Counted from the first letter of the stretch, positions 1,206 through 28,541 are shown. The stretch: 32,000 bases of DNA from an uncultured Bacilli bacterium (GCA_934098505.1 CAKOOR010000004.1:1-32000), one strand, 5' to 3'. Notes: generated from the letters alone by a model not told the origin. A program made the numbers and translations.

Positions 1206-1289
1206 GACTTTTTATCAGAGTCTTTTTTTCGTTGTCAAAATAAACGATTTAGTTTATAATTAAATTAAGATAAGAAGAGGTTATAGATT

Positions 1290-2740: not shown

Positions 2741-2758
2741 TATATATAAAAATAAAAA

Positions 2759-3013: not shown

Positions 3014-3040
3014 TTTCATAGAGTTATATGCTCTATGAAA
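3014..3040. repeat. Recombinase-core-site-like repeat, locus A right (inverted relative to 2759..2785)
   Basis: TTTCATAGAG-TTATATG-CTCTATGAAA. The spacer is the reverse complement of CATATAA. It lies 38 nt upstream of the ATG at 3079. Confidence 0.8.
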
Positions 3041-3078
3041 GCGTAATTTAGGATATTTATTAGATGGAGTAAGAAAGA

Positions 3079-4323: not shown

Positions 4324-4336
4324 TATTAAAATAAAT

Positions 4337-4371
4337 AGACAGAAATATCTAAAAAGAATTCTGTCTTTTTA
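4337..4371 (+). terminator. Rho-independent terminator of paralog 1
   Basis: AGACAGAA ... TTCTGTCT (8-bp perfect stem) followed by TTTT. Confidence 0.6.
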
Positions 4372-4414
4372 GTATCCTTAAATAATTGTTACTTTTGGTA
4401 TTAAAGATAAAAAA

Positions 4415-4440
4415 TTCATAGAGTATATAACTCTATGAAA
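4415..4440. repeat. Recombinase-core-site-like repeat, locus B left
   Basis: TTCATAGAG-TATATAA-CTCTATGAAA. It is the perfect 26/26 reverse complement of 4669..4694. Confidence 0.8.
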
Positions 4441-4668
4441 ACTATTTTTCAGTATCTATTTTTAACTTATATTACAAATATACCATATAATTAGGATTAA
4501 TTAAAGAGTTTTTAATAAACTATTATAGTCAAAATTGTAGTCATTTAATTTTAGGCTTTTTCTAGATATTATAGGACTCTAAAGCTATTTTTAATTTCAA
4601 AGAACTATTAACTTTTATGGTCAAAAAATGTAGTCAAGTTGGCTTTTAATCTAGTAAATACCTACTAT

Positions 4669-4694
4669 TTTCATAGAGTTATATACTCTATGAA
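4669..4694. repeat. Recombinase-core-site-like repeat, locus B right (inverted)
   Basis: TTTCATAGAG-TTATATA-CTCTATGAA. It lies 38 nt upstream of the ATG at 4733. Confidence 0.8.
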
Positions 4695-4732
4695 ACCATA
4701 ATTAAGGGTATTTTTACTAACGGAGGTTAAAA

Positions 4733-5935: not shown

Positions 5936-5945
5936 TAAAACTTAT

Positions 5946-5991
5946 AAGAGTAATATTTTAAAATTAATAATTAGAAATATTACTCTTTTTA
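5946..5991 (+). terminator. Rho-independent terminator of paralog 2
   Basis: Perfect 12-bp stem AAGAGTAATATT (5946..5957) / AATATTACTCTT (5976..5987) followed by TTT. Confidence 0.65.
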
Positions 5992-6107
5992 AAATTTTAA
6001 AATATCATTATTCAAATTTATAAATATAATTAAAAAACTTTAAAATGATAAAATTATGTGGTATATTTATAATATATGTTAGAGATAAAACTAAAAGAAA
6101 GAATAAA

Positions 6108-6208
6108 GTTGGGTAGGAATTAAAAGATGAAATAAATTTAAAAAGTAATATTAAAATAGCGGGTGGTATTGGTACAACTAATGATCTTTATATAATTGAA
6201 AGTAGTTA
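6108..6208 (+). pseudogene. Relic of the 3' end of a paralog of the 6250..7785 gene
   Basis: Translation of 6127..6208 gives DEINLKSNIKIAGGIGTTNDLYIIESS*. This aligns with the C-terminus of the downstream gene, VFNLKADTLAQGSGTASDPYRISS*, on the shared pattern NLK....A.G.GT..D.Y.I.SS-stop. There is no ORF upstream of it and the reading frame is broken around 6108..6126. Confidence 0.35.
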
Positions 6209-6249
6209 AATAATTTAAATAAATTATAATAAGATAAAGGAGATAGAAA

Positions 6250-7785
6250 ATGACAAAGAAAAATATAATATTTATAAGTGTATCTTTAATACTACTTATG
6301 TTATTAGGAATAGGAGTATCCTATTCTATGTGGATTTTGACTGTAAGTCAAACTGGGGTTAATACGGCTTATTCTAAGTGTTTTGATTTAAGTATAACTA
6401 ATAAAGAAAATAATATTTCATTAGAAAATGCTTATCCTATTACTAATGAAAAGGGTAAGAGCTTAACACCTTTTACTTTTACAATAACTAATACTTGTGA
6501 TATTAATGCTAGTTATAATATTAATTTAGAAAGTTTAAATGGTACTACTTTAAAAGCTGATTATCTAGATATAATGTTAGATAGTAATGAACCTAAGAGA
6601 TTAAATAGTTATTCTACTGCTACTTTAGTTAATAATGATAGTATTGATTCTAGAAACTTAACTAGTGGTATTTTAGATAGTGGTAAGTCTAAAAGTTTTT
6701 CTCTTCGTATTTGGATAGATTATAATACGACTTTAGCTGATTTAGAGAATTCTACTAAGTTATTTAAAGGTAAAATAATTGTAGTTGGTACTCCTACTAA
6801 TGAGTCTGAACCAATAATTAATAAGATTATTTCTCAGTTAGATACTTCTGGTAAGTGTCCAACGGTAAATGAAGATGGTTCGGTAAATGTAACTGGTGTT
6901 GAGGCAACAGATGGTTACTTATGTAAAGCCAAAGATGCTTATGGTGATTCCTATTATTATCGTGGTAATGTAACAAATAACTATGTGAAGTTTGCTGATA
7001 AATATTGGCGAATTGTTCGTATTAATGGTGATGGAACTGTTCGTGTTATTTATGATGGTACAAGTGCCCATACCAATGGAGAGTCAAGTAGTGATCGTCA
7101 AATTGGTACTAGTGCGTTTAATAGTAGTTATAATGATAATGCTTATGTTGGTTATATGTATGGTGCCACTGGTGCCTCAACGTATGCAGCAGCTCATGCA
7201 AATACCAATGATTCAACAATCAAAACTTACATAGATAATTGGTATAAAACGAATATTTTAGGAACTGCCAATGAACAATATTTGGCTGATAATGTTTTTT
7301 GTAATGATCGTTCAATAAGTACGTATACCACAAGTTCAAATACAAAACTGGGTTATGGAACTAATTCAACATATTATAGATGGGCATATGGTCCATGGAA
7401 CGGTACAAACTATGGTAATATGAAAATGATGTTAACATGTCCACAACAAAATGATGCCTTTACAGTAAGTGATACTACTAATGGTAATGGGGCTTTAACG
7501 TATCCAATAGGCCTTTTGAGTACAGACGAAATAGCACTAGCCGGTGGATGGAACGAAGAAAATAGTGGTTATTACCTATACTCTGGGCAAGCTTGGTGGG
7601 CTTCCTCGCCGTACTACTTCGGTGGTAACTACGCTAGCGTGCGTCGCGTGGATTCGGGTGGCTATGCGAACCACAGCAACAACGTGGGCGACGCTCGCGG
7701 GGTTCGGCCAGTTTTCAATCTGAAGGCTGATACACTGGCACAAGGCTCAGGGACAGCATCTGACCCATATCGCATTTCTTCGTAG
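6250..7785 (+). CDS. Membrane-anchored surface protein with C-terminal DUF6273-like (WW..SP ... GVRP) ligand-binding-type module
   Basis: 511 aa, RBS AAAGGAG. N-terminal anchor IIFISVSLILLMLLGIGVSY. The C-terminal ~280 aa carry the ordered motifs YWRIVRINGDGTVRVIYDG, YIDNWY, LLSTDEIALAGG, AWWASSP and GVRPVFNL. The name DUF6273 is from memory and has not been verified. Confidence 0.8.
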   Translation: MTKKNIIFISVSLILLMLLGIGVSYSMWILTVSQTGVNTAYSKCFDLSITNKENNISLENAYPITNEKGKSLTPFTFTITNTCDINASYNINLESLNGTTLKADYLDIMLDSNEPKRLNSYSTATLVNNDSIDSRNLTSGILDSGKSKSFSLRIWIDYNTTLADLENSTKLFKGKIIVVGTPTNESEPIINKIISQLDTSGKCPTVNEDGSVNVTGVEATDGYLCKAKDAYGDSYYYRGNVTNNYVKFADKYWRIVRINGDGTVRVIYDGTSAHTNGESSSDRQIGTSAFNSSYNDNAYVGYMYGATGASTYAAAHANTNDSTIKTYIDNWYKTNILGTANEQYLADNVFCNDRSISTYTTSSNTKLGYGTNSTYYRWAYGPWNGTNYGNMKMMLTCPQQNDAFTVSDTTNGNGALTYPIGLLSTDEIALAGGWNEENSGYYLYSGQAWWASSPYYFGGNYASVRRVDSGGYANHSNNVGDARGVRPVFNLKADTLAQGSGTASDPYRISS

Positions 7786-7960
7786 AAGAAATAAAAGAAA
7801 TTGAATTTTAAAACAGCTTAGCTTGGAATGACATTGGGAGAGTTAAAAGATAGAACGTGACGGAACCAAGAAATTCAAGCAACCCAAGAGCGAAAGGAAA
7901 GTACGTGTGCAAGCCCCAAGGATGGGAAGCTAAGGGACCCAAAACGAACAATAATGCGAG

Positions 7961-7997
7961 GGGTTTTGCTTAAACTATAAAAGCTTAAGCAAAACCC
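7961..7997 (+). terminator. Strong hairpin closing the intergenic element (possible terminator, weak T tract)
   Basis: Perfect 13-bp stem GGGTTTTGCTTAA (7961..7973) / TTAAGCAAAACCC (7985..7997) with an 11-nt loop. It is followed by GATTT rather than a long T run. Confidence 0.4.
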
Positions 7998-8032
7998 GAT
8001 TTAAATTAAAATTATAGAAATGAGGTAAGAAA

Positions 8033-11000
8033 ATGAGAAAAATAGTAGATGGTAATACTGCTTGTAGTAATATTGCTAATTTATTTACAGAAATAGCATC
8101 TATTTATCCTATTACACCATCTAGTCCGATGGCTAGTAATATCGATAATTTAAAATTAAGAAAGAAGAATTTATTTAATGAATCAGTTGAAGTAGTCGAA
8201 ATGCAAAGTGAAGCCGGGGCTGCTGGCGCTATGCATGGAGCTTTAATAAGTGGTTCTCTAGCAACGACTTTTACAGCATCACAAGGACTTCTATTAATGA
8301 TTCCTAATATGTATAAAATTGCCGGTGAAGGTTTACCAGGTGTCATTCATGTTGCGGCTCGTACGGTGGCAACCCATGCTTTATCAATCTTTGGTGATCA
8401 CAGTGATATTTATGCCACTCGTGGAACTGGTTTTGCAATACTCGCATCAACTAATGTCTTTGATGCTCAAAACTTAGCAGCCGTTGCTCATCTATCAACC
8501 ATCGAAGGAAGTGTACCTTTCTTACACTTCTTTGACGGTTTTAGAACTAGTCATGAACTAAATAGTATAGAAGAATTACCAGATGAAGAATTATTAAAAC
8601 TAATTGATTTTGATAAAGTAAATGCTTTTAAAAAACATGCTCTAAATGTTGGTTGTGGCTACCAAAGAGGTATGGCCGAAAACGAAGATATTTACTTCCA
8701 AAGTGTTGAAGCTCGTAATAATGATTACTTAAAGATTCCAGATATCGTAAATAACTATATGGAAAAAATAAATGATATCATGCATACTGATTATCAACCA
8801 TTTAACTATTATGGTTCCAAGACGGCAAAATATGTTATTGTTGCTATGGGTAGTGTTTGCGATACAGTAAAACTTACACTTGATGAATTAAATAAAGAAA
8901 ATAATGTTTATGGTCTAATTGAAGTTCATCTATATCGTCCATTTAGTAAAGATTATTTAACTAAAGTTATACCAAGTACCGTTGAAAAAATTGCTGTTTT
9001 AGATCGAACTAAAGAATCAGGTAGTATTGGGGAACCATTATATCTAGATGTTGTAGCTGCTTTACATGATAAAAATATCCAAATCGTTGGCGGCCGTTAC
9101 GGCTTATCTAGTAAAAATACAACTCCAAGTGATATTGCTGGTGTTTATAAAATGCTAGCAACAGAGTTAAAAAATAACTTTACGATTGGTATTAATGATG
9201 ATGTAACTAATTTAAGCTTAGCAAAAGTACCTATGGATATTCAAGTAGCTGATAAAGAAATTATAATCTATGGCTATGGTTCTGATGGTATGGTTTCAAC
9301 TTCTAAAGACATTATGCATTATCTAGGCGAAGAAAAAGATTTACATGTTCAAGGTTATTTCCAATATGATAGTAAAAAATCGGGTGGAGTAACTGTATCA
9401 AACTTAAGAATGTCTAGTAAACCAATAAATGCTCCATATTACGTATCCCATCCATCGTTACTAGTTATTACTAAAGATGCTTATTTAAAAGACTTTGATA
9501 TGTTTAGTAACTTAAAAGAAAATGGTATTTGCTTAATCAATACTAATAAAAAATCTCATGAATTAGACGAGATTATACCTAATAAAGCTAAAGAACTTAT
9601 TAAAGATAAAAATATCAAAGTATTACTAATAGATGCTGATAAAATTGCGTTAGAAAATGGTATTAAAGGTAAGATTAGTAAGATAATGGAAATAGTTATC
9701 TTAAAACTAATGGGATTTAATGATGCTGAAGACTATATTAAAGATTCTATTCGTAAGAAATTTGGTACTAAAGGTGATGATATCGTTAATGCTAATATTA
9801 ATTCTTTAAGTAGTGCTGTTAAGAGTGTTATCCTTGTTAAGGGAGAATTTACAAAAAAAGAAGAAAATGAATCACATGATGATATCTTTACTCTAATTAA
9901 TAAAAGAGAAGGGGATAATCTTAAAGTATCTGATCTCTTAGCTTATAAAAACGGTATTTTCCCTAATGGCCTAGCGGCTAATGAAAAACGTAAAATAACT
10001 AATATGGTTCCAAAGTGGATTCCTGAAAATTGTATTCAATGTGGAATGTGTGCAACAGTTTGTCCTCATGCTGTTATTCGTCCAATTATAACTGCGGCTA
10101 AAGATGCTGAAAAAGGTATTAAAGTCCTAGGACATACTGATTATAATTATGAAATTGTTGTTAGTGAAGCTGACTGTACTTCTTGTGGTCTATGTATTAA
10201 TGCTTGTCTTGGTAAAGCCGGTAAGAAAGCTTTAGAATTTGGTGAAGCTACTTACGAAACTCAAGATTATGCTGATAAAATGTTTAAAGACCATCAAAAC
10301 CCTGAAATTTTTGACAGATTTACTTTAAAAGGTGCCTCTTTAAGAAAACCTTGTTTCGAATTTAGTGGCGCTTGCGCTGGTTGTGGCGAAACTCCATACT
10401 TAAAAATGTTAAGTCAATTATTTGGCGAAAAATTAGTTATTGCTAATGCGACAGGTTGTTCATCAATTTACGGTGGTTCCGCTCCATCAACCCCATACTT
10501 AATTCCTTGGGCTAACTCTTTATTTGAAGATAATGCTGAATTTGGTTATGGTATGTATTTAACTTATAAAAATACCCAAAAACGTATCCATGATATTATT
10601 ACTAAGTCAGTAGATTGTGTAAATGATGAAGTAAAAGAGTTACTAAATAAATGGTTAGAAAATGAGAATAACTATGATGTAACTAAAGAAATTGTTGATA
10701 AATTACAAACGATGGAAATTCCAGAGGATTTAAAAGATATTTTAGAATATATGGTTGCTCGTAGCGTCTTCATCGTTGGTGGCGATGGTTGGGCTTATGA
10801 TATCGGTTTCGGTGGTATCGATCATGTCTTATCTAGTGGCGAAAATGTTAATGTCCTAGTTTTAGATACCGAGGTTTATTCTAATACCGGTGGTCAAGCA
10901 TCGAAATCAAGTCGTGTTGGGGCCGTTGCTGAATTTGCAAACATGGGTAAAAAGACAGCTAAGAAAGACTTATTTAGAATAGCTATGTCATATCCAAACT

Positions 11001-11401
11001 GTTATATCGGTAGTATCTCTTTCGGGGCTAACTTCATGCAAACTATTAAAACTATGAAAGAAGCTGAATCTCATAATGGACCAAGTTTAATTATTTGCTA
11101 CTGTCCATGCATCGAACAGGGTCTTCATGGTGGCATGTCAAACTCTATAAGTGAAGAAAAATTAGCGGTAGAATGTGGTTATGTTAACTTAATGCGTTAT
11201 GTACCTGAAGATAAAAAATTATATATCGATTCTAAAGAACCAGACTTTACTAAATATGAAGATTTCTTAAAGAACGAAGTAAGATATAGTAGTCTAATGA
11301 AAAAAGATCATGAACTTGCTAAAGAACTTCTAGATATTCAAGTAAATAATGCTAAAGAAAGATATGACTTTTATAAAGATATCGCTAGTAAAAATAATTA
11401 A
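8033..11401 (+). CDS. nifJ: Pyruvate:ferredoxin (flavodoxin) oxidoreductase
   Basis: 1122 aa single-chain PFOR. Two 4Fe-4S ferredoxin motifs (CIQCGMCATVCP, CTSCGLCINAC), a Cys cluster (CAGCGETPY, ATGCSSIYGG) and the TPP-binding motif GGDGWAYDIGFGG...SNTGGQ. Confidence 0.95.
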   Translation: MRKIVDGNTACSNIANLFTEIASIYPITPSSPMASNIDNLKLRKKNLFNESVEVVEMQSEAGAAGAMHGALISGSLATTFTASQGLLLMIPNMYKIAGEGLPGVIHVAARTVATHALSIFGDHSDIYATRGTGFAILASTNVFDAQNLAAVAHLSTIEGSVPFLHFFDGFRTSHELNSIEELPDEELLKLIDFDKVNAFKKHALNVGCGYQRGMAENEDIYFQSVEARNNDYLKIPDIVNNYMEKINDIMHTDYQPFNYYGSKTAKYVIVAMGSVCDTVKLTLDELNKENNVYGLIEVHLYRPFSKDYLTKVIPSTVEKIAVLDRTKESGSIGEPLYLDVVAALHDKNIQIVGGRYGLSSKNTTPSDIAGVYKMLATELKNNFTIGINDDVTNLSLAKVPMDIQVADKEIIIYGYGSDGMVSTSKDIMHYLGEEKDLHVQGYFQYDSKKSGGVTVSNLRMSSKPINAPYYVSHPSLLVITKDAYLKDFDMFSNLKENGICLINTNKKSHELDEIIPNKAKELIKDKNIKVLLIDADKIALENGIKGKISKIMEIVILKLMGFNDAEDYIKDSIRKKFGTKGDDIVNANINSLSSAVKSVILVKGEFTKKEENESHDDIFTLINKREGDNLKVSDLLAYKNGIFPNGLAANEKRKITNMVPKWIPENCIQCGMCATVCPHAVIRPIITAAKDAEKGIKVLGHTDYNYEIVVSEADCTSCGLCINACLGKAGKKALEFGEATYETQDYADKMFKDHQNPEIFDRFTLKGASLRKPCFEFSGACAGCGETPYLKMLSQLFGEKLVIANATGCSSIYGGSAPSTPYLIPWANSLFEDNAEFGYGMYLTYKNTQKRIHDIITKSVDCVNDEVKELLNKWLENENNYDVTKEIVDKLQTMEIPEDLKDILEYMVARSVFIVGGDGWAYDIGFGGIDHVLSSGENVNVLVLDTEVYSNTGGQASKSSRVGAVAEFANMGKKTAKKDLFRIAMSYPNCYIGSISFGANFMQTIKTMKEAESHNGPSLIICYCPCIEQGLHGGMSNSISEEKLAVECGYVNLMRYVPEDKKLYIDSKEPDFTKYEDFLKNEVRYSSLMKKDHELAKELLDIQVNNAKERYDFYKDIASKNN

Positions 11402-11412
11402 AAGTATATTAA

Positions 11413-11446
11413 AGATGTAGAAAATTAATTTCTATGTCTTTTTTCT
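11413..11446 (+). terminator. Rho-independent terminator of nifJ
   Basis: AGATGTAGAAA-ATTAA-TTTCTATGTCT (11-bp stem with two G-T wobbles) followed by TTTTTT. Confidence 0.6.
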
Positions 11447-11497
11447 TATTTTGCTTTTTATTATGAAAAAATTAATTATATTTAAAATATAACTATT

Positions 11498-11541
11498 TTC
11501 ATTGAACAAAACTGCCGTAAACGGCAAAAAAGTTCAATGAA
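11498..11541. repeat. 44-bp nested-palindrome repeat, copy 1
   Basis: TTCATTGAAC-AAAA-CTGCCGT-AA-ACGGCA-AAAAA-GTTCAATGAA. The outer 10-bp arms and the inner 6-bp arms are both self-complementary. Confidence 0.75.
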
Positions 11542-11585
11542 ACATTGATTTTAACAAAAAAAGACTATATAATGACTATATAAAG

Positions 11586-11628
11586 TTATTGAACAAAACT
11601 GCCACAAACGGCAAAAAAGTTCAATGAA
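11586..11628. repeat. Nested-palindrome repeat, copy 2 (slightly degenerate)
   Basis: TTATTGAACAAAACTGCCACAAACGGCAAAAAAGTTCAATGAA. Same element as copy 1 with a 1-nt deletion in the left arm and GT to AC in the inner stem. It ends 18 nt before the ATG at 11647. Confidence 0.7.
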
Positions 11629-11646
11629 AGGAAAGAGGAACTTATA

Positions 11647-12894
11647 ATGAATGAAAAAATAATAGAAAGAAATGATTACTTAAATAAAATAATTGCTCGC
11701 AAAGGTAATGGTTTAATTAAAATAATAACCGGTATTAGAAGATGTGGAAAATCTTTTATACTTAATAACATTTTTTATAATCACTTAATAAGTACTGGTA
11801 TCAAATCTGACCATATTATTAAATTAGCTTTAGATAGAGCTGAAAATATAGAGTATCATGACGCTAAAAAATTAAATGAATATATTTTGTCACAAATTAA
11901 AGATGATAACATGTATTATGTATTAATCGATGAAATTCAGTTAGCAGCTGGGTTTGAATTTGTTTTAAATGGCTTATTATACGAAAAAAACATTGATGTT
12001 TATGTTACTGGAAGTAATTCTAGATTTCTATCGAGCGATATAATTACAGAATTTAGAGGTCGTGGCGATGAAATCAGAATATATCCATTATCCTTTGCTG
12101 AATTTGTTAATGCTTATGATGGCAATAGATATGAGGCTTGGAATGAGTACGTAACTTATGGTGGCATGCCTTTAATATTGAAGCAGAAAACAGACGAACA
12201 AAAGAGTAAATATTTAACAAGTTTATACGATTTAACATATAAAAAAGATATAATCGATAGAAATAATATTGATAAACCAGATGTTCTTGATACTTTAATA
12301 AACATTTTAGCTTCCTCAGTTGGATCTTTAACCAATCCCCAAAAAATTTACAATACTTTTATAAGTAATGGTATCACAGATATTGCCAAAAATACGGTTA
12401 TTTCATATATGGATTATTTATTAGATTCATTCTTAATAGAAAAGGCTGAAAGATACGATGTTAAAGGTAAAAAATATATCCAGACTCCTCAAAAATATTA
12501 TTTTGCTGATATTGGTCTTCGTAATGCAAAGTTGAATTTTAGACAACAAGAAGAAAATCACTTAATGGAAAATATAATTTACAATGAATTATTAATTAGA
12601 GGTTATAATGTTGATGTAGGTGTAGTTGAAGTAAGAGAAGCTGATACAAGAAAACAGTTAGAAGTCGATTTTGTTTGTAACCAAGGCAATAAAAGATATT
12701 ATATTCAATCAGCCCTAAATCTAGATACTCCAGAAAAAACTCTTCAAGAAACTAAGTCCTTAAATAATATTGGTGATAATTTTAAAAAAATAGTTGTTGT
12801 TAAAGATAACATTAAACTATGGCGCAATGACGATGGAATTTTAATAATAGGAATTCAAGAATTTTTATTAAATAAAAATAGTTTAGATTTGTAA
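11647..12894 (+). CDS. AAA_14 / DUF4143-type ATP-binding protein (COG1373-like)
   Basis: 415 aa. Walker A GIRRCGKSF and Walker B YVLIDEIQ. The C-terminal region (YYFADIGLRN..., ...VDFV...) is typical of this widespread uncharacterised ATPase family. Confidence 0.8.
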   Translation: MNEKIIERNDYLNKIIARKGNGLIKIITGIRRCGKSFILNNIFYNHLISTGIKSDHIIKLALDRAENIEYHDAKKLNEYILSQIKDDNMYYVLIDEIQLAAGFEFVLNGLLYEKNIDVYVTGSNSRFLSSDIITEFRGRGDEIRIYPLSFAEFVNAYDGNRYEAWNEYVTYGGMPLILKQKTDEQKSKYLTSLYDLTYKKDIIDRNNIDKPDVLDTLINILASSVGSLTNPQKIYNTFISNGITDIAKNTVISYMDYLLDSFLIEKAERYDVKGKKYIQTPQKYYFADIGLRNAKLNFRQQEENHLMENIIYNELLIRGYNVDVGVVEVREADTRKQLEVDFVCNQGNKRYYIQSALNLDTPEKTLQETKSLNNIGDNFKKIVVVKDNIKLWRNDDGILIIGIQEFLLNKNSLDL

Positions 12895-12939
12895 AAAGGT
12901 CATAATATTTAAGATATAACTGTTTTCATTAAACTTATA

Positions 12940-13053
12940 ATGAATGAAAAAATAATAGAAAGAAATGATTACTTAAATAAAATAATTGCTCGCAAAGGTA
13001 CTAGTTTAATTAAAATAATAACCGGTATTAGAAAAAAATTGGGAAAGTACTAA
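12940..13053 (+). pseudogene. Decayed duplicate of the 5' end of the 11647..12894 ATPase gene
   Basis: 12940..13035 repeats 11647..11742 almost base for base (ATGAATGAAAAAATAATAGAAAGAAATGATTACTTAAATAAAATAATTGCTCGCAAAGGTA...). It then degenerates and stops after 37 codons (MNEKIIERNDYLNKIIARKGTSLIKIITGIRKKLGKY*). The Walker A motif is destroyed. The upstream ATATAACTGTTTTCATTAAAC also matches 11486..11507. Confidence 0.75.
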
Positions 13054-13160: not shown

Positions 13161-14105
13161 ATGAAAAATTTTGATAACTTAAAAGAAAATGGAATAAGAT
13201 ACGGTGGGCATAATGGTTATAAATTAGGAGTTATAATTGATGGTAAAAATTGGTTTTTAAAGTTTCCACAATCAACTAGAAATTTAGCAAGGAAAGTAGA
13301 AATTTCTTATACTACTTCACCATTATCTGAATATATAGGATCTCATATTTATGAGATTATTGGTATTCCTGTTCATAAAACAATACTCGGTATAAAAGAT
13401 AAAAAAATAGTAGTAGCTTGTAAAGATTTTCGAAAAAATCCTAATATATATTTTTTTGATGATTTTAATTCGATTAAAAATGATTATGTCGAAGGATTAG
13501 ATGAAAAGTTAGAATCAACTTCCTCCAGCAGTAGTCATGGTGTAAGTTTAGAAGAAACAATGATTATGATGGATAACAATCCTTTATTTTTAAAAATGCC
13601 TGCTTTAAAAAGACGTTTTTGGGATATGTTTATTGTAGATGCTTTAATAGGAAATAATGATCGTAATAATGGCAACTGGGGTGTACTTGTAAATAGTGAA
13701 AATAACGAAACAGAACTGGCACCAGTCTTTGATAATGGGGCTTCATTTAATACTAAATCAAGTGATGACAAAATCGAGGCTATATTAAATGACAATGCTA
13801 GATTTGTAGAAAGTGCCTATAGAACCAGAACCTGTATTTTTGAAGAAAATGCCCAGTAAATAAATCCATTCAAGTATATTGAATCACTAAAAAATAAAGA
13901 ATGTAATGAAGCATTAATAAGAATAGTACCTAAAATTAATTTAGATAAAATAAGTGAAATGATTAATGAAATACCAGAAAGTTTTGAAGGAATAGATATA
14001 ATTAGTAAAAAGAGAAAAGAATTTTATATAAAATGTTTAAAATATCGTTATGAAATTTCCTTATATCAAACTTATTTAAAAACTTTAAAATTAGAAAATA
14101 ATTAA
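13161..14105 (+). pseudogene. HipA-like Ser/Thr kinase (C-terminal-domain type) interrupted by a single in-frame TAA
   Basis: ORF 13161..13859 contains the HipA-type catalytic loop FIVDALIGNNDRNNGNWGVL. The stop at 13857..13859 is followed in the same frame by 81 more sense codons (INPFKYIESLKNKECNEALIRIVPKINLDKISEMINEIPE...KTLKLENN*) ending at 14105. Confidence 0.65.
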
Positions 14106-14201: not shown

Positions 14202-16181
14202 ATGTCAGATTTTACATTTTTAAATAAAGAACAAGTATTTGGAGAACATCAATTATCCGTTCTAAAAAAGTATGGAGTAAAGGCAGTTCTAACGGATTTT
14301 TCTAATCTTCTTGGTGGTTTTTATGTTGGTACTAAACATTATGGTGTTTACTGGTTAAAGGATTTAACCGATGATAAGGTAGCCGTAGTTAATTATGGTG
14401 GTTCATTAAGACATGAGGCTGATAATGTAAAAAGTATCGCTGCCCGTATAGTATTACCAATAAACAACGATATAGAAAATTCTATTACAGAAAAAGGAAA
14501 ACTATTATTTTGTGAGCCTTCTAATTGTAATCCTTCTAATAGGCCTCTGGTTGTAAAAGAAGTAGAATATGGTTTTTATCCTCAGATGGCCGTATCAAAC
14601 GAACTACAAGAAAAATTAGAAGCGGAATATAAGACCTCTAATTTAAAGGTTAGCCACAACAGTTATACAGTAGACAAAAACCATTTTTTAACGAAAGACA
14701 AGGCCTTTTCGCCTTTAGCAATTCCTGAATATATATATGAAAACAAATATTATGTGAGAGTTATAAATTCTTCTTGGCCTTATACTACCTTAAATGATGG
14801 TAGAGAAGTAAAAAATGACGATTTTGTTTGGCTTGAAGTAAGTCCTGTTGAGTGGTTAATTGATAAAGAGTCTAATCTTTTAATAAGTAAATATTTATTG
14901 TTTTCTAATATCAGCTATTCATATGCTAAAAATGATAAAGATAATTTTGAAAAAACAGGTATTAAATGGTATTTAGATAATATTTGGTCTAAAGAACTAA
15001 TGCGAATATTTCAGATTAATCCGGTTAGTCCTATTATAAATAAAGAGCCTATTATAGATAAAGAGCCTAAAGAGCCTATTATAAATAAAGAGCCTAAAAA
15101 GTTACAAAAGGAACCTAACCCTTATAATTTTGATTTTTCTAAAGTAAGGGAAGAAGATATTATTAAAGGGGCTATCCAAAGTAATGTTGCAGTCTTCTTA
15201 CACGGCCGAAGTAGTGATGGTAAATCAAGTAGAGTAAAACAACTAGACCCTGATTGCATAATTCTTTACTTAAGAAATGCTACTCCAGATAGTCTAAATG
15301 GTAAATCTGTTTATAATGAAAATACTGGTGAAATGATTGATGTTCCCCCAACTTGGTATAAAAAATTACAAGAAAAATGCGAAAAAGAGCCTGATAAAAT
15401 TCATCTTGTTTTCTTTGATGAATTAACTAATGCCTTGCCAAGTATTCAAGGTATGGCATTCAATATTATTTTAGATGGTGAAGTAAATGGTATCTGGAAA
15501 CTACCTAAAAACGCGAGAGTTGTTGCGGCCGGCAATGACTTGAATGATTCTTTGGCTGCGAACGAAATGGCTGAACCATTATTTAACCGCTTTGCTCATG
15601 TTTATTTCAACACAACTACTAATGACTGGTTAAAGTGGGCCTCAATGGATAGTAAAGATTATCAAACTCTATCTTATAGTTCTAAAGAAAATCCTATGAA
15701 AATTCATCCGGCTATCTATGCCTTTATTTCTTATGAACGCTCCTATGAACATAATATTTTAAGAACACCATTTGACGGTAAAACACCAAATGCTGACCCT
15801 AGAAAATGGGAGATGGCTTCTAGAGTTTTATATCAAACCGGTAAACCTGAAATGTTAAGAGCCTTGATTGGGTGGAAATTAACCAAAAAATTTATTGCAT
15901 TCTGTAAAGAAAAGGCCGTATGTTATCACGATATTATAACTAAGACCTGGAATATTGAAGACGTTGCCGATGCTGAATTAAACATTACCGAAAAATATGC
16001 CACTACCGTAAGTTTGGCTTTGCAAACCAAAGAAGAAGATTTAGAAGTCGTTAGAAACTTTATTGAGTGTTTTGGGCAAGAATTCTTATCAATGTTTGAT
16101 GCTATCTGGAGTTACAACAATAAAGAAAGATTAGAAACACTTAATAATCTAAAATTAGCAAAAGCCAAAAAGACTGAATAA
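14202..16181 (+). CDS. MoxR-like (AAA_5-type) AAA+ ATPase with N-terminal DUF6273-like sensor-type domain, copy 1
   Basis: 659 aa. Core motifs: Walker A HGRSSDGKSS (GxxxxGKS), Walker B LVFFDELTNA, sensor-1-like VVAAGND, and LFNRFAHVY (Arg finger region). This follows the MoxR/AAA_5 pattern DE..N..p..q......il.........lp.n.r..a..N........l...l.nRF. The N-terminal 270 aa carry the motifs FTFL..E, LTDFS.LLGG, YWLKD, ARIVLPI, YGFYPQ, VEWLID and IKWYLDNIW. Confidence 0.85.
   Translation: MSDFTFLNKEQVFGEHQLSVLKKYGVKAVLTDFSNLLGGFYVGTKHYGVYWLKDLTDDKVAVVNYGGSLRHEADNVKSIAARIVLPINNDIENSITEKGKLLFCEPSNCNPSNRPLVVKEVEYGFYPQMAVSNELQEKLEAEYKTSNLKVSHNSYTVDKNHFLTKDKAFSPLAIPEYIYENKYYVRVINSSWPYTTLNDGREVKNDDFVWLEVSPVEWLIDKESNLLISKYLLFSNISYSYAKNDKDNFEKTGIKWYLDNIWSKELMRIFQINPVSPIINKEPIIDKEPKEPIINKEPKKLQKEPNPYNFDFSKVREEDIIKGAIQSNVAVFLHGRSSDGKSSRVKQLDPDCIILYLRNATPDSLNGKSVYNENTGEMIDVPPTWYKKLQEKCEKEPDKIHLVFFDELTNALPSIQGMAFNIILDGEVNGIWKLPKNARVVAAGNDLNDSLAANEMAEPLFNRFAHVYFNTTTNDWLKWASMDSKDYQTLSYSSKENPMKIHPAIYAFISYERSYEHNILRTPFDGKTPNADPRKWEMASRVLYQTGKPEMLRALIGWKLTKKFIAFCKEKAVCYHDIITKTWNIEDVADAELNITEKYATTVSLALQTKEEDLEVVRNFIECFGQEFLSMFDAIWSYNNKERLETLNNLKLAKAKKTE
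15030..15101 (+). repeat. In-frame tandem repeat (18-bp unit CCTATTATARATAAAGAG, 3 full copies plus 9-bp partial copies) in the inter-domain linker
   Basis: Full units at 15030..15047, 15048..15065 and 15075..15092. Partial CCTAAAGAG at 15066..15074 and CCTAAAAAG at 15093..15101. Encodes PIINKE-PIIDKE-PKE-PIINKE-PKK. Confidence 0.85.
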
Positions 16182-16248
16182 TATCATATTATTTTTAAAT
16201 TTTTCAATTTAGGAATAATTAACGTTATAAAAAAAGGAAAATAAATTT

Positions 16249-16650
16249 ATGAAACAAGAAAAGTTAAAGTTGTTAAAAGATTATTTAGAATTAGGACAAA
16301 TTCCAATATTAATAGAAGATACCTACCAAAGTATTTTTAAAGATAGTATCTTTCTTGCTAATGATTGTCAAATAGAAGACTTAAATGGTCATTATGAAGG
16401 AATAGACTTCTGCCCACCAGATTGGTATAGCAAACTTTTAAACCAGTCTAAAAAAACTAGACCAGTTCTTATGATTAGAAACATTAATAAAATAGATATT
16501 AACGATCAAGCCAAATTTATTGAAATATTAAAATATAAGCAAATAGCAACCTTTGAGCTACCAAAAAACACTTTAATTATCTTAACTGTAACTGATTTAA
16601 ATAGTAATAAATTAAATAAAGAAGTAGCCTCTTTAGTAGCAATGATATAG
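16249..16650 (+). CDS. Small degenerate AAA+ core paralog lacking Walker A and Walker B (pseudo-ATPase)
   Basis: 133 aa. CPPDWYSKLLNQSKKTRPVLMIRNINKIDINDQAKFIEILKYKQIATFELPKNTLIILTVTD aligns with VPPTWYKKLQEKCEKEPDKIHLVFFDELTNALPSIQGMAFNIILDGEVNGIWKLPKNARVVAAGND of the flanking ATPases. The P-loop position reads EDTYQSIFKDS and the Walker B DE position reads NI. Confidence 0.7.
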   Translation: MKQEKLKLLKDYLELGQIPILIEDTYQSIFKDSIFLANDCQIEDLNGHYEGIDFCPPDWYSKLLNQSKKTRPVLMIRNINKIDINDQAKFIEILKYKQIATFELPKNTLIILTVTDLNSNKLNKEVASLVAMI

Positions 16651-16658
16651 GAGTAGTT

Positions 16659-18143
16659 ATGAATGTTGATATTGATAAAATAAAAAGAAAAATGTTAATA
16701 AAATATCCTTTCTTTGGTAGTGTTATTGCCAACTTAAAGTATGTAAAAGATGAAGAAGTAAAAACCGCCGCGACTGATGGTGATAATATTTATTATAGTG
16801 AAGAATTTCTTTCTAAATTAAAACCAGATGAACAAGTATTTGTTTTAGCCCATGAAACTTGTCATATAGTTTTTAAACACGTTGATAGACGTAATAGTAA
16901 GGAACCTATAATGTGGAATATTGCTTGTGATGCGGTTATAAATGCCTTTTTAGAAAGTGATGGGCTACCTGTACTAAAAGATGCTGTTAAAATAGAAGGC
17001 GCTATTAATTATGATGCTGAAGAATTATACGAAAAATTAAGACAAAAAAAAGAAGAAAATGAAAAGTCTAAAGACCCTAATGGAAACTCTAACCGTCAAC
17101 AAGAAAATGGAAATCAGGGAAAATCTAACGGTTCTAGAAATCAAAAACCGCAAAATAATTCTCCTGCTTCTGAAAGCAAAAGTGCTAATGATAATTCTAG
17201 TAATAATATTGAAAATGCTAATTTTGATATAAAAGGTATCATCCCTCCGGCTAATCATGAACTATGGAAAAAGGATTTAAAAAAGACTAATAATAATGAA
17301 AATCAAGATAATCTAAGTGATAATAATAAAAAAGAATCTAATCAAAATAATTCCAATCCCAATTCTAAACTTGAAGACGCTAAGAAAGAATCCGATACTG
17401 AAAGTGATAGGGAAAAGAAAGTAAAAGAGTTAACAAAGAAATTTGCTAATATTGGTGAAAAGAAGGCCTTTGCTCAAAATAAAATTGAAAGAACTAAAGT
17501 ACTAGAAGAATTAAAAAAATCACTAGCCCAAGAAGCCAGTAATCATGGTAATACAACTAATATGGAAAAAAGAAAAGTAGATAATATCGGTATTTCTAAA
17601 CCATTAATTGACTGGCGCCGTCTTTTAAGAGAAACCATTACTTATGATAATGATTGGTCTTATCAAAATGCGACCATTGAAGATGGTTGTGTTGTTCCTC
17701 ATTTAGAAGATATACCCAAACCAGTTGCAGAAATAGTATTAGATACTAGTGGCTCTATTGATGAGAACTTATTACGCAATTTTTTAAGAGAATGTAAAAA
17801 TATTTTTCCAACTTCAAAAGTAAAAGTAGGTTGCTTTGATACTAAATTCTATGGCTTTCAAGAAATAAGAAATATTAATGATATTGATACTTTTCCTTTA
17901 GTGGGCTTTGGGGGTACCAACTTTGATGTTGCTGTTAATGCTTTTTCTAAAAGAGTGGAAAATAAAATTATATTTACCGATGGCTACGCCGATATGCCAA
18001 GTAAGAAAGTTAATGCTATCTGGGTTGTGTTTGGTAATGATAAAATTAATCCTCCTGGAGGCAAAGTTATTTATATAGATAGTGCGGCCTTAGAACGACT
18101 ATCTGGCTTTTCTTCTGGTTATGGGCTTAGAAGAAAATTTTAA
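16659..18143 (+). CDS. Zn-metallopeptidase-like (DUF2201_N type, HExxH) / vWA (DUF2201 type) fusion protein
   Basis: 494 aa. N-terminal YPFFGSVIANLKYV..AATDGDNIYYS..VLAHETCHIVFKH..WNIACDAVIN. A long N/K/E/S-rich low-complexity linker spans roughly residues 125-300. The C-terminal vWA has MIDAS residues VLDTSGSI, GGTNF and FTDGYAD. Start is 8 nt after the preceding stop. Confidence 0.85.
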   Translation: MNVDIDKIKRKMLIKYPFFGSVIANLKYVKDEEVKTAATDGDNIYYSEEFLSKLKPDEQVFVLAHETCHIVFKHVDRRNSKEPIMWNIACDAVINAFLESDGLPVLKDAVKIEGAINYDAEELYEKLRQKKEENEKSKDPNGNSNRQQENGNQGKSNGSRNQKPQNNSPASESKSANDNSSNNIENANFDIKGIIPPANHELWKKDLKKTNNNENQDNLSDNNKKESNQNNSNPNSKLEDAKKESDTESDREKKVKELTKKFANIGEKKAFAQNKIERTKVLEELKKSLAQEASNHGNTTNMEKRKVDNIGISKPLIDWRRLLRETITYDNDWSYQNATIEDGCVVPHLEDIPKPVAEIVLDTSGSIDENLLRNFLRECKNIFPTSKVKVGCFDTKFYGFQEIRNINDIDTFPLVGFGGTNFDVAVNAFSKRVENKIIFTDGYADMPSKKVNAIWVVFGNDKINPPGGKVIYIDSAALERLSGFSSGYGLRRKF

Positions 18144-18163
18144 AAAGAAAAGAGTTGAAAAAA

Positions 18164-20071
18164 ATGAATGATTTTACTTTTATAACTGGCGAAGATGCTT
18201 TTGGCGATGATGATCAAGCATTGGAAATCTTTAAAGTAGCTGGTACTAAATCACCATTAACTGATTATTCTATTATTTTAGGGGCTTATTATGATCCTGA
18301 ATCTAAATTAAGTTATGGCTCTTATTGGACTAAATCAACAGTTAGTAGTAATAAAAATGTTATCATTGTTGATGAAGAAGGCTATTCGGCAACTTATAGT
18401 ATTTGTCTGCGAGATATTGGGGCTAGAGTTGTTTATAATTTACCTGAAAATATTGAAAAGGAATTAACTAAAAATCTGGATACAACTACTGAACATATTT
18501 TTCAAGTAAAATACGGTTATTATCCTCAATCTGCCTTAAATAGGCTAGAACAAAAGAATTTAGATAATATGCTAAAGCAAGGTAAATTGCAATTAACCAA
18601 TAATTGTTATACTGCTGATTCTAGAAAGGATGGCGAAGATGATGAAATTTTTGCTCCTATTACTTTTAAAGAATACAAATTAGAGGATAAAAGATTAATA
18701 AAAGCCGTTGCCAATACAGCCTTGTATAATGGGTTTAAGTCCAAGTATAAAAATGGCGATAGTATTTGGGTTAATGTAGAACCAGTTTATTGGTTACTTG
18801 ATACTAAAAAGCATCAAATGATAAGTGGAAAAATTTTATTCGCTGGTGTTCAATTTGCTGATAATCCCAGTTTTACTAAGTTTGAAGAAACTAGAATTTA
18901 TCAATTTTTAAATACTTGTTTTGCTAGAGAATTAGTCCAAGGCTTAGATGAAAAATTGCTGCCTATAAAAGAAGAAGCTTCTATTAAAGATACTAAATTT
19001 TCAAATTTATATAATTTTGATTTTTCTAAAGTAAGTGAAGAAGACATTATTAAAGGGGCTATCCAAAGTAATGTTTCTGTCTTTTTACATGGCAGGAGTA
19101 GTGATGGCAAATCAAGTAGAGTAAAGCAACTAGATCCTGATTGCATAATTATTTACTTAAGAAATGCTACTCCGGACAGCCTAAATGGCAAAAGTGTCTA
19201 TAATGCCAGTACTGGTGAAATGATTGATGTACCACCAACTTGGTATAAAAAATTACAAGAAAAGTGTGAAAAAGAACCTAATAAACTTCACATTGTTTTC
19301 TTTGATGAATTAACTAATGCTCTACCTAGTATTCAAGGCATGGCTTTTAATATCATTTTGGATGGCGAAGTAAATGGTATCTGGAAACTCCCGGAAAATG
19401 CAAGAATTGTTGCGGCTGGCAATGACTTGGATGATTCCTTGGCTGCCAATGAAATGGCTGAACCCTTATTCAATCGCTTTGCTCATGTATATATTGATAC
19501 AACTGTTGATGATTGGTTAGATTGGGCAATGACTCCAGATAAAAATTATGAAGCATTAGATTATCAAAAACAAGAAAATTCTTTTAAAATCCATCCAGCT
19601 ATCTATGCTTATATTGCTTATAATGAGGCGATTGATAAATACGTTTTAAGAACTCGTTATGATGGGAAAAAACCTAATGCTGATCCTAGAAAATGGGAAA
19701 TGGCTTCTAAAGTATTATATCAAACTGGCAAGCCAGAAATGTTAAGGGCTTTAATTGGCGAAGATTTAACTAGGGATTTTATTGCTTTCTGCACCCAGAA
19801 AGTGCTAAGTATCGAAGATGTTTTAAATGAAAACTACTCTGAAGAAGACTTAAAAATGGACACTTCTAAGAAATATATTACTATTGTTAATTTATCCTTA
19901 GTAGATGAAGAAAATGTTGAAGTAATAAGAGATTTTGTAGCAAAATTAGGTAAGGAATTATTAGCCACTTTTTATTTATTGTGGACGCGTGGTAATGAAA
20001 CCAGATTAGAAAAAATAGCTGAATTAAAATTAGCTGGCAATCCTTTAAAATTACTAAAATCAAAAGACTAG
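18164..20071 (+). CDS. MoxR-like (AAA_5-type) AAA+ ATPase with divergent N-terminal DUF6273-like domain, copy 2
   Basis: The ORF track opens at TTG 18155. I prefer ATG 18164 because MNDFTFITGEDAFG then aligns with MSDFTFLNKEQVFG of copy 1. It has the same Walker A/B, sensor and Arg motifs as copy 1. The N-terminal domain carries YWTKS, GARVVYNL, YGYYPQ, VYWLLD. Confidence 0.85.
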   Translation: MNDFTFITGEDAFGDDDQALEIFKVAGTKSPLTDYSIILGAYYDPESKLSYGSYWTKSTVSSNKNVIIVDEEGYSATYSICLRDIGARVVYNLPENIEKELTKNLDTTTEHIFQVKYGYYPQSALNRLEQKNLDNMLKQGKLQLTNNCYTADSRKDGEDDEIFAPITFKEYKLEDKRLIKAVANTALYNGFKSKYKNGDSIWVNVEPVYWLLDTKKHQMISGKILFAGVQFADNPSFTKFEETRIYQFLNTCFARELVQGLDEKLLPIKEEASIKDTKFSNLYNFDFSKVSEEDIIKGAIQSNVSVFLHGRSSDGKSSRVKQLDPDCIIIYLRNATPDSLNGKSVYNASTGEMIDVPPTWYKKLQEKCEKEPNKLHIVFFDELTNALPSIQGMAFNIILDGEVNGIWKLPENARIVAAGNDLDDSLAANEMAEPLFNRFAHVYIDTTVDDWLDWAMTPDKNYEALDYQKQENSFKIHPAIYAYIAYNEAIDKYVLRTRYDGKKPNADPRKWEMASKVLYQTGKPEMLRALIGEDLTRDFIAFCTQKVLSIEDVLNENYSEEDLKMDTSKKYITIVNLSLVDEENVEVIRDFVAKLGKELLATFYLLWTRGNETRLEKIAELKLAGNPLKLLKSKD

Positions 20072-26931: not shown

Positions 26932-27008
26932 GCACCCATAGCGCAATTGGATAGAGCGTTAGACTACGGATCTAAAGGTTAGGGGTTCGACTCCCTTTGG
27001 GCGCACCA
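26932..27008 (+). tRNA. tRNA-Arg (anticodon ACG)
   Basis: Hand-folded cloverleaf. Anticodon stem TTAGA/TCTAA, loop CTACGGA, T loop TTCGACT, encoded CCA. Two stem mismatches are noted (A3-C70 and G12-A23). Confidence 0.85.
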
Positions 27009-27015
27009 CGTATTT

Positions 27016-27092
27016 CGGGAAGTAGCACAGCTTGGTAGTGCACCTGGTTTGGGACCAGGGGGTCGCAGGTTCGAATCCTGTCTTCCCGACCA
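27016..27092 (+). tRNA. tRNA-Pro (anticodon TGG)
   Basis: Hand-folded cloverleaf. Acceptor CGGGAAG/CTTCCCG, D stem GCAC/GTGC, anticodon stem CCTGG/CCAGG with loop TTTGGGA, T loop TTCGAAT, encoded CCA. Confidence 0.92.
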
Positions 27093-27791: not shown

Positions 27792-28541
27792 CTATATATT
27801 ACTTATGTCTATTTTAGTGAATAGCTTATTTATATTTTTTTCATCAATTTCAAATGTGGTTCCCTTATCTTGGATTTTTCCATATTTTTCCTGAGAAGTA
27901 TAAAAAGAAATCTTCATATTTATTCCAATATCACCAGTGGAAATTAAATCTAAAAAGCAATCAAAACTTCTTAATTTGTATAATTTAAAATTATGATATT
28001 TAAAATAAACATCATCTTTATATTTCTTCTTTTCTACTGGAATTAAAGCCAAATAATTTAGTTTCATATTTAAACGATTTTCCAATTGTTCAAAAGACCA
28101 AGAAATATTTTTATTGATATAATTTGTATACCTGTTTTTAACAACCAACCATATTTTTTTATGAACTTTATCAACTTCTAATTTAAATTCTTTAAATAAG
28201 CCAATTTTGGTAAATTTATTACCGTAAATTTTGCCAAAAAATACTTTATACTTTCGATCTTTCCTACTAGGCCAACCATATCGAATTAAAATTTCTTTAA
28301 GCGCTAGTGGTCTATTATCAGGAACCATTGAGAAAAGGCCAATATGAGGTTCACTATATAAAAATTTAGTTTTTAACTCGATTCCATAATAATCAGCAAT
28401 AATTAAATTATCATCTTCTTTACCTAACAAATTTTCTAACATTTTACCAGCGGCACTTGTACCTTTTTCTGTATTTTTAATCCAATTTTTACATTGAATT
28501 TTATAAAACTCTATTTTTAATTTTTTAATATTATCATTCAT
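27792..28541 (-). CDS. PD-(D/E)xK nuclease of the MvaI/BcnI-MutH-Sau3AI type (putative type II restriction endonuclease)
   Basis: 249 aa. RBS AGGAGG. GTSAAGKMLENLLGKEDDNLIIADYYGIELKTK gives D50-x4-E55-x-K57. This is the same spacing as the D-x4-E-x-K catalytic triad I recall for BcnI, and the G..G...E.llG.......D..giELK pattern is shared with MutH. Size is similar to BcnI and MvaI. Confidence 0.6.
   Translation of the reverse strand: MNDNIKKLKIEFYKIQCKNWIKNTEKGTSAAGKMLENLLGKEDDNLIIADYYGIELKTKFLYSEPHIGLFSMVPDNRPLALKEILIRYGWPSRKDRKYKVFFGKIYGNKFTKIGLFKEFKLEVDKVHKKIWLVVKNRYTNYINKNISWSFEQLENRLNMKLNYLALIPVEKKKYKDDVYFKYHNFKLYKLRSFDCFLDLISTGDIGINMKISFYTSQEKYGKIQDKGTTFEIDEKNINKLFTKIDISNI

Follow-up and report, generated by a model that had tools for sequence, protein, structure and literature searches.

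A Bacilli cassette lacking a diversity-generating retroelement in a candidate recognition-and-response family of gut and rumen Bacillota

Described MoxR-vWA systems and the cassette

Several described systems couple a MoxR-like ATPase to a partner protein with a vWA domain. In the VMAP/iSTAND ternary systems (PMC7159879, PMC10907252), whose hosts are multicellular cyanobacteria or actinobacteria, this pair is accompanied by a third component, which can be an inactive NTPase, by an associated peptidase activity, and by a lectin-type domain that is hypermutated by a neighbouring diversity-generating retroelement (DGR). In the NorQ-NorD pair, the NorQ ring grips the vWA domain of NorD and remodels the linker that leads to its N-terminal domain (PMC13036017). 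In lytic phages, a MoxR-vWA pair has been described as chaperone and cochaperone, with a metallopeptidase at the N-terminus, and a role in virion assembly has been proposed for it (Iyer et al. 2021, PMC7824862). Here we analysed a stretch of 32,000 nucleotides from an uncultured Bacilli bacterium (GCA_934098505.1 CAKOOR010000004.1:1-32000; the whole stretch is called the window), which carries a cassette of four genes, g1 to g4, at positions 14202-20071. The genes g1 and g4 encode AAA+ ATPases that each bear an N-terminal sensor-type domain (N-domain), g2 encodes a catalytically dead ATPase core, and g3 joins a metallopeptidase-like domain to a vWA domain. We cautiously favour the view that this cassette belongs, as a member without a DGR, to a cytoplasmic recognition-and-response family of gut and rumen Bacillota, in which the recognition function is probably immune in kind. 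The preliminary description of this DNA had proposed a candidate NTP-dependent conflict system; at the level of predicted function this proposal is supported, and it is strengthened by the DGR that targets the N-domain in relatives.

Comparison with the VMAP/iSTAND systems indicated that the window family shares with them the pairing of a MoxR-like ATPase with a vWA protein, the DGR-hypermutated domain (here in relatives of the window), the inactive NTPase as third component (iSTAND there, a dead AAA+ core here), and the associated peptidase; for both, the function of the system is predicted. The differences are substantial. The variable FGS/CLec domain of those systems lies at the C-terminus of the vWA protein, whereas the variable domain here is N-terminal on the ATPase; the vWA domain here is C-terminal to a DUF2201_N metallopeptidase, whereas in the systems of Kaur et al. 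2020 the effector domains follow the vWA domain C-terminally. As third component, the window family has a dead AAA+ core of 133 aa rather than VMAP, inactive STAND, FtsH or a beta-propeller, and its hosts are unicellular gut Bacillota with small genomes. No VMAP or STAND component was detected, and the bpMoxR model matched homologs only below its threshold. The nearest conceptual relatives are these DGR-associated MoxR-vWA ternary conflict systems. The pair of a MoxR ATPase and a metallopeptidase-vWA protein is itself already known, as phrog_1297 and phrog_1314 of lytic phages, including jumbo phages of group 2.2 (PMC7824862). In open-access full texts searched for DUF2201, DUF6273, and DGRs with MoxR, AAA or vWA proteins, we found no account of the architecture seen here.

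DGRs and the N-terminal domain

The cassette ATPase has many relatives over its full length, with more than 2600 scored matches among 8000 candidates examined, and a scan with one genome per species yielded 79 loci. When the flanking open reading frames (ORFs) were clustered, two families recurred directly upstream of the ATPase gene. The first is a reverse transcriptase (RT) of ~345 aa with a YMDD and a GLPLGNQ(S/T)SQ motif (RVT_1 match, 6e-17), and the second is a basic, helical, Avd-like protein of ~194 aa (bAvd match, 4e-5, below the Pfam cutoff). With hidden Markov models (HMMs) built for both families, the RT was found at 15 genome loci and the Avd-like protein at 12. Both proteins also occur in L087, a relative on a viral contig, where PHROGs assigns the RT to phrog_1423 'Reverse transcriptase' (2.8e-106) and the Avd-like protein to 'Avd protein of DGR' (5.5e-11). 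Of the 49 loci with at least 2.5 kb of upstream sequence, 13, about a quarter, carry the RT. Between the avd and RT genes lies a template repeat (TR) of ~80 nt, which matches nt ~+200 to +290 of the ATPase gene, corresponding to codons ~65-95 of the N-domain. The stretch rewritten by the DGR amounts to ~25 codons in a region of beta-hairpin and loops. Across 12 pairs of TR and variable region (VR), 138 of the 163 mismatches fall at TR adenines, as do 11 of 14 in L087; such adenine-specific mismatches are the diagnostic signature of a DGR. The VR encodes DNDARVVxxxGxxxxxxVxxRxxGARPALPYS and ends in a GC-rich element resembling an initiation-of-mutagenic-homing site. An N-terminal VR is rare, having been reported for 3 of 372 DGRs (PMC5758913). 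In L033, which has the order ATPase-g2-g3-ATPase of the window, the VRs of both ATPase copies match a single TR. Because an adjacent DGR targets the N-domain in these relatives, we infer that this domain recognises ligands through a surface that is under diversifying pressure. In the ATPase tree, DGR-positive and DGR-negative loci are interleaved, and decayed states occur (the RT is truncated in L009 and frameshifted in L021, and L022 has Avd without RT), which suggests that the DGR has been lost repeatedly.

The TRs (~6610-6740 of the locus) contain in-frame TAA, TGA or TAG codons. A stop is kept in four of the 12 VRs (L006, L007, L012 and L020; VR at ~8160-8300 of each locus), where it breaks the ATPase ORF into pieces of 75-90 aa and ~530 aa. 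These stops could act as an on/off switch through mutagenic homing, or could be an artefact of the consensus in metagenome-assembled genomes (MAGs).

The N-domain of g4 was modelled with AlphaFold2 (AF2) at high confidence (predicted local distance difference test [pLDDT] of 89.2, predicted template-modelling score [pTM] of 0.89). The preliminary description had assigned this domain to a family otherwise seen on extracellular ligand-binding proteins and had named DUF6273 among the models to search. DUF6273 (PF19789) is detected on homologs of g1 and g4: P0065 (27.3 bits), P0082 (25.4) and P0128 (26.3) pass the cutoff of 23.5. It is not detected on g1 and g4 themselves, which give no match even at E <= 10. 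On the homologs, the match covers only the first ~100 residues of the N-domain and stops at the VR, which forms its C-terminal end and closes in a G-x-R-P motif. DUF6273 has been described as C-type-lectin-like and is a frequent DGR target in receptor-binding proteins of gut phages, with the VR likewise at its C-terminal end (PMC10743442, PMC11792537), and it makes up the N-terminal domain in ThomasA, a surface IgA protease (PMC12402451). The N-domain homologs share DUF6273 with the tentaclins, the DGR targets of Faecalibacterium prophages and ThomasA; those proteins are extracellular or serve receptor binding on virions, whereas the N-domain here is cytoplasmic, fused to an ATPase and extended by a second beta-rich subdomain. 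The claim that the two ATPases carry different N-terminal domains has to be revised, as the two are homologous, at 29% identity, and do not belong to different families. An exhaustive representative search recovered 1181 representatives related to the N-domain, among them stand-alone and tandem forms and fusions to ankyrin and DUF4116 repeats; used alone as query, the N-domain gave no match in the word-indexed protein database.

A diversified cytoplasmic sensor might also serve regulation, kin or self recognition, or the processing of variable endogenous proteins instead of immunity. Binding by DGR targets serves a wide range of purposes, kin recognition is put forward by Doré et al. as an alternative role of DGR-diversified conflict systems (PMC10907252), and the stand-alone and repeat-fused N-domains would fit such a role. 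We consider it quite improbable here, given that no conserved regulator or output gene accompanies the cassette and that contact with other cells is unlikely for proteins with neither signal peptide nor transmembrane segment. The latter absence, claimed earlier, agrees with a crude Kyte-Doolittle scan of g1-g4, in which no 19-residue stretch has a mean above 1.2 and no N-terminus is hydrophobic.

Comparison of the window copy with these relatives revealed a 'frozen' family member, with two anciently diverged sensor paralogs rather than one diversifiable sensor. The segments of g1 and g4 that align with the VRs of relatives (Table 1) have a GC content of 0.31-0.33, against 0.45-0.51 in active VRs. 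In the g4 model, this segment forms a beta-hairpin and loops (strands 65-69, 75-79 and 90-92), and the entropy over g4 aa 61-100 is 0.08 bits in 55 close homologs. A DGR acting in trans on the window genes was also considered and is not supported, as these segments show no hypervariability and have lost the GC-rich flanks.

Elsewhere in the window, a 511-aa ORF has a DUF6273-like, VR-like end (VRRVDSGGYANHSNNVGDARGVRPVFN), with a sub-threshold Pfam match (E-value of 7e-4). Ahead of it lie the genes of two paralogous proteins with the ALK_LTK_GRD glycine-rich domain, and no RT was found nearby. This ORF may be another, possibly former, target of the DGR type. Its comparison with the N-domain profile was not significant (probability of 1.8%).

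The ATPases, the dead subunit and the peptidase-vWA protein

g1 and g4 are paralogs, as had been stated, with an overall identity of 50% that falls to ~29% over the N-terminal ~280 residues and rises to ~70% over the ATPase halves; at the DNA level, a 300-nt stretch of the core is 90% identical. The catalytic motifs reported for both were located: Walker A (GRSSDGKS, at residue 335 of g1 and 310 of g4), Walker B (FFDE, 404 and 379), sensor-1 (AAGN, 442 and 417) and the Arg-finger motif (FNRF, 461 and 436), all four of them invariant across the family alignment. Both proteins match the ATPase family phrog_1297 in PHROGs (1.1e-41 for g1 and 3.1e-45 for g4). The ATPase part of g4 was modelled by AF2 with a pLDDT of 86.4, and a Foldseek search with this model gave NorQ and RavA as top matches (9qhg, 6q7l and 3nbx; E 1.2e-6 to 3.3e-6), followed by MCM, dynein and sigma-54 activators at E-values less than tenfold higher. 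Placement of the modelled g4 ATPase in the superclade that contains MoxR is supported, with MoxR proteins as the most similar; MoxR proper is likely, though not the exclusive fit. Searches of PDB sequences with g4 and with the family profile gave no true match; matches to fatty-acid-binding proteins at E ~0.007 were rejected as spurious. The linker between the N-domain and ATPase of g1 carries a short imperfect tandem peptide repeat (PIINKEPIIDKEPKEPIINKEPKK), which is shorter or absent in the orthologs of L002, L019 and L004.

The small g2 protein aligns with the ATPase core (hhalign probability of 95.4%, E 1.8e-8) with its Walker A and B, sensor-1 and Arg-finger motifs all replaced, which bears out its description as a catalytically dead copy of that core. 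It has no Pfam match. We found 42 homologous ORFs, nearly all of 130-135 aa and all in the same position between the ATPase and peptidase-vWA genes. They belong to loci of the Bacilli type; none occurs in loci of the Clostridia type, where the gap between the ATPase and vWA genes is ~20-30 nt.

Analysis of g3 likewise agreed with its reported makeup of an HExxH domain, a disordered linker and a vWA domain with a complete metal ion-dependent adhesion site (MIDAS). Pfam places DUF2201_N at aa 6-177 (5.7e-36, 125 bits, cutoff 23.2) and the DUF2201 vWA domain at aa 359-474 (1.3e-12, 48.4 bits, cutoff 26.4), which provides the vWA partner directly beside the ATPases. The peptidase motif is HETCH, and the MIDAS consists of DTSGS, GGT (418-420) and TDG (440-442). 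Across 66 homologs, residues E66, H69, H74, D362, S364, S366, T420 and D441 are at least 95% conserved, and DxSxS is present in all 66. The linker is of low complexity, gap-rich and poorly conserved over aa ~140-260. g3 also matches phrog_1314 (1.1e-70), whose label 'HNH endonuclease' is evidently an annotation error.

The arrangement of these proteins suggests how recognition might be coupled to a response. The N-domains, arrayed on an ATPase hexamer, would bind a protein ligand that varies and that most plausibly stems from a phage or another invader, with g1 and g4 representing two fixed specificities. The part of g2 could be that of an adaptor or of a ring or cap subunit without hydrolysing activity, following a logic that appears comparable to that of the inactive STAND component in the iSTAND ternary systems. 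Ligand binding would gate the ring, which might then engage the vWA domain of g3 through its MIDAS, by analogy with NorQ and NorD. An ATP-driven pull on the long disordered linker of g3 could release or activate the N-terminal HExxH peptidase, and the peptidase would cleave the captured ligand or a host target, leading to immunity or abortive infection. A bolder form of this model, to which we give rather little credence, is programmable receptor-guided proteolysis, in which a DGR-diversified lectin-like receptor built into a MoxR ring directs a tethered vWA-metallopeptidase to destroy an invader protein or trigger suicide. Such a system would be cytoplasmic, anticipatory and antibody-like; its extra paralogs would be hard-wired specificities, and the TR stops would be its on/off switch.

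A number of results weigh against the recognition-and-response reading. MoxR ATPases are generally remodelers rather than unfoldases. No Pfam gathering threshold is reached by g1 or g4: with AAA_5, whose cutoff is 22 bits, they score 14.2 and 15.0, and the match is confined to model positions 65-139, while the longer homologs P0062 and P0072 pass (29-34 bits). The earlier assignment to the MoxR/AAA_5 kind agrees with the motifs and the adjacent vWA partner and fails at the AAA_5 cutoff. In the HMM checks, DUF2201_N and DUF2201 pass on g3, and AAA_5 and DUF6273 miss their thresholds on g1 and g4. The 'C-type-lectin-like' label of the N-domain derives from weak, partial DUF6273 matches on homologs; a Foldseek search with the g4 N-domain model returned nothing from PDB or BFVD at E <= 0.001, and a C-type-lectin fold thus found no structural confirmation. 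A literal HExxH is found in 57 of the 66 g3 homologs and is missing from nine. None of g1-g4 matches a family of PADLOC-DB v2 at E <= 0.01, and NCBIfam gives zero matches, both in agreement with the earlier remark that the architecture matches no named defence system; around the loci there is neither a recurrent PADLOC neighbour nor an enrichment of defence islands. The homologous phage pairs of ATPase and peptidase-vWA protein are proposed assembly chaperones. In the window itself, RT and Avd HMMs found no match in a six-frame translation of the full 32 kb, no TR/VR-type repeat with adenine mismatches is present, and the VR-equivalent segments are no more variable than the remainder of their proteins (g4 in 55 close homologs, g1 in three orthologs). 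With RT, Avd, TR and hypervariability all missing from the window, the DGR argument holds for this copy by homology.

The structural matches lead to a competing explanation, that the cassette encodes a housekeeping or assembly chaperone-protease in the manner of RavA-ViaA, NorQ-NorD or the phage pair, which matures a cellular complex with the N-domain as client adaptor. The fold of the ATPase part is nearest to NorQ and RavA, and in NorD and ViaA, as in g3, a linker connects a C-terminal vWA domain with the domain at the N-terminus. These systems differ from the cassette in that no sequence-level PDB match links them and no metal-insertion client lies in its neighbourhood; the sensor domain, peptidase domain and dead subunit go beyond them. 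In tblastn searches, the phage ATPase and peptidase-vWA genes were found side by side in ~470-570 lytic phages at 25-30% identity, including PA5oct-like jumbo phages, Schitoviridae, rV5-like phages, cyanophage S-TIM5 and Campylobacter phages, and the assembly-chaperone reading of the pair (PMC7824862) would carry over to the cassette. The phage and window ATPases are homologous over the core and the C-terminal helical domain (hhalign 99.4% to the MoxR-like ATPase of Acinetobacter phage nACB1), the partner is a homologous DUF2201_N-linker-DUF2201 protein, and the genes are adjacent in the same order. Unlike the window family, the phage ATPases have no N-domain of ~270 aa (tblastn covers aa ~296-600 only) and no DGR, and the small ORF between the phage genes is unrelated to g2. 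The mostly housekeeping flanks of the loci and the empty PADLOC searches also suit a housekeeping chaperone. It is nonetheless an unlikely explanation, since hypermutation by a DGR is not expected of an adaptor whose client is a conserved complex, no recurrent neighbour gene offers itself as a client, the distribution is patchy and the chromosomal position shifts, and the ATPase varies between one and three copies with divergent N-domains. In nACB1 (L088, 3998-8054), the order is a MoxR-like ATPase of 374 aa, a 137-aa ORF, a DUF2201 protein and an AAA ATPase; the 137-aa ORF was considered as a g2 homolog and rejected, as it has no detectable similarity to g2 or the ATPase core.

If the recognition-and-response reading is correct, DGR-diversified cytoplasmic sensing would reach beyond multicellular cyanobacteria, actinobacteria and purple sulfur bacteria, for which it has been proposed, and would include abundant small-genome Bacillota of the human gut, in a compact format of two to four genes. 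The DUF2201_N/DUF2201 proteins, which are very common yet uncharacterised, and the MoxR proteins that accompany them in phages would also become more accessible to functional study. Loci with an active DGR, with a decayed DGR and with frozen multiple paralogs form a natural series that could show how a diversifying receptor becomes fixed, and an AAA+ ring with its own hypervariable receptor and a tethered protease would be of interest for engineered targeted protein degradation.

Distribution, gene layout and surroundings

All 79 loci come from gut or rumen Bacillota, as MAGs or isolates; the hosts include uncultured Bacilli/'Tenericutes', Coprobacillus sp. CAG:605, Anaeroplasma, Oscillospiraceae, Lentihominibacter and Zhenpiania hominis. 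Mapping of these loci showed that the conserved unit is [N-domain-ATPase]-(mini-ATPase)-[peptidase-linker-vWA], with the peptidase-vWA gene downstream of the ATPase in the related loci that reach far enough. The ATPase is present in one to three copies with divergent N-domains and is single in most loci. Two tandem upstream copies occur in L005, L032, L040 and L043, and an extra downstream copy, as in the window, in L002, L004 and L033; L002 has three copies. The second ATPase is a variable, lineage-specific extra copy, and the four-gene order did not prove to be the conserved unit, the core being two or three genes.

The cassette occupies differing chromosomal sites, and its neighbours are unrelated among genomes. 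Among 150 flanking proteins from 25 loci, 187 Pfam families were found, none in more than three proteins; the flanking genes are mostly housekeeping, with a few integrases and transposases and one RelB. Apart from the DGR genes, no conserved neighbours, defence-island enrichment or prophage structural genes were seen around 37 loci. The enrichment in defence islands or prophages raised by the preliminary description was thus not found around the loci examined, and a defence role stays a prediction. Its account of an accessory context in the window was confirmed: the supposed decayed gene duplicate is the 102-nt direct repeat of Table 1, a copy of the 5' end of the AAA_14/DUF4143 gene just past its stop, and a HipA_C fragment and an XRE helix-turn-helix (HTH) protein lie nearby. 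The IS30-like transposase and the MvaI/BcnI-family restriction endonuclease of Table 1 add to the accessory genes of this region.

Such surroundings raise the alternative that the cassette is an accessory module of a mobile element or prophage, serving superinfection exclusion, counter-defence or host takeover, of which the window copy would be a remnant, either stranded or domesticated. PHROG families exist for all components, some loci have an integrase, transposase or toxin-antitoxin gene in their vicinity, and IS30-like, HipA-like and XRE genes lie near the cassette in the window. The L087 set directly follows tail-fibre, holin and endolysin genes. Scans of the same type, however, recovered 116 relatives from genome contigs and a single one from 2.9 million viral contigs, both flanks are housekeeping in most loci, and the phage homologs have no N-domain. 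The chances of this alternative appear small, and it overlaps with the recognition-and-response reading, as a moron would still be a recognition system. L087 itself (IMG/VR UViG 3300006217_003178, 1-11622), the sole relative on a viral contig, has the gene order Avd-TR-RT-ATPase-g2-g3, with an ABC-ATPase-like gene between this set and the phage genes before it; the set may be a moron carried by a prophage, or the contig may include host DNA that borders one.

The four genes lie on the same strand with intergenic gaps of 67, 8 and 20 nt, matching the operon-like layout described earlier (Table 1). The ATG start of g4 is that of the identical database protein P0001, present on 40 contigs; a TTG at 18155 is a possible alternative. 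Against the relative L002, which is 92% identical, dN/dS is 0.16-0.28 across all four genes (0.28 for g1, 0.17 for g2 and 0.16 for g4). The genes are under purifying selection and are maintained; that they are decaying relics is ruled out by these values, the intact ORFs and the invariant motifs. Promoter and terminator scans of the AT-rich window DNA performed no better than on shuffled sequence.

Table 1. Positions of the cassette genes, their mapped segments and further features of the window
Feature	Position (nt)	Strand	Description
g1	14202-16181	+	659 aa; N-terminal sensor-type domain, aa 1-~295, then MoxR-like AAA+ ATPase with C-terminal helical domain, aa ~300-659
g1 VR-equivalent	14370-14459	+	aa 57-86, DDKVAVVNYGGSLRHEADNVKSIAARIVLP; not hypervariable, GC-rich DGR recognition flanks lost; aligned to VRs of relatives and to g1 orthologs
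g1 linker repeat	15030-15090	+	aa ~277-297
g2	16249-16650	+	133 aa; AAA+ alpha/beta core, catalytically dead; third subunit
g3	16659-18143	+	494 aa; DUF2201_N zinc-metallopeptidase-like domain, low-complexity linker, DUF2201 vWA domain
g3 HETCH	16851-16865	+	aa 65-69
g3 linker	~17046-17648	+	about aa 130-330
g3 DTSGS	17742-17756	+	aa 362-366
g4	18164-20071	+	635 aa; N-domain, aa 1-~275, ATPase, aa 276-635; second sensor-domain-ATPase copy
g4 VR-equivalent	18350-18442	+	aa 63-93, NKNVIIVDEEGYSATYSICLRDIGARVVYNL; not hypervariable; aligned to VRs
IS30-like transposase	106-1152	+	HTH_38 and rve; left edge of the window
ALK_LTK_GRD proteins	3079-4323, 4733-5935		paralogous
ORF with DUF6273-like end	6250-7785	+	511 aa
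Tandem 77-nt elements	11466-11542, 11553-11629		75% identical, strong hairpin
102-nt direct repeat	11639-11740, 12932-13033		98% identical
HipA_C fragment	13161-13859		232 aa; below Pfam cutoff
tRNA-Arg and tRNA-Pro	26932-27092		
MvaI/BcnI-family restriction endonuclease	27792-28541	-	beside the tRNA genes

A HipA_C-like gene also adjoins the cassette in L081 (15350-16285, - strand), with IS605 TnpB and RhuM upstream; its presence in two otherwise unrelated contexts may be a coincidence or may reflect a loose toxin-antitoxin association. The tandem 77-nt elements (TTGAACAAAACTGCCGTAAACGGCAAAAAAGTTCAA) lie between the PFOR and AAA_14 genes and may be a terminator or a repeat resembling repetitive extragenic palindromic (REP) elements.

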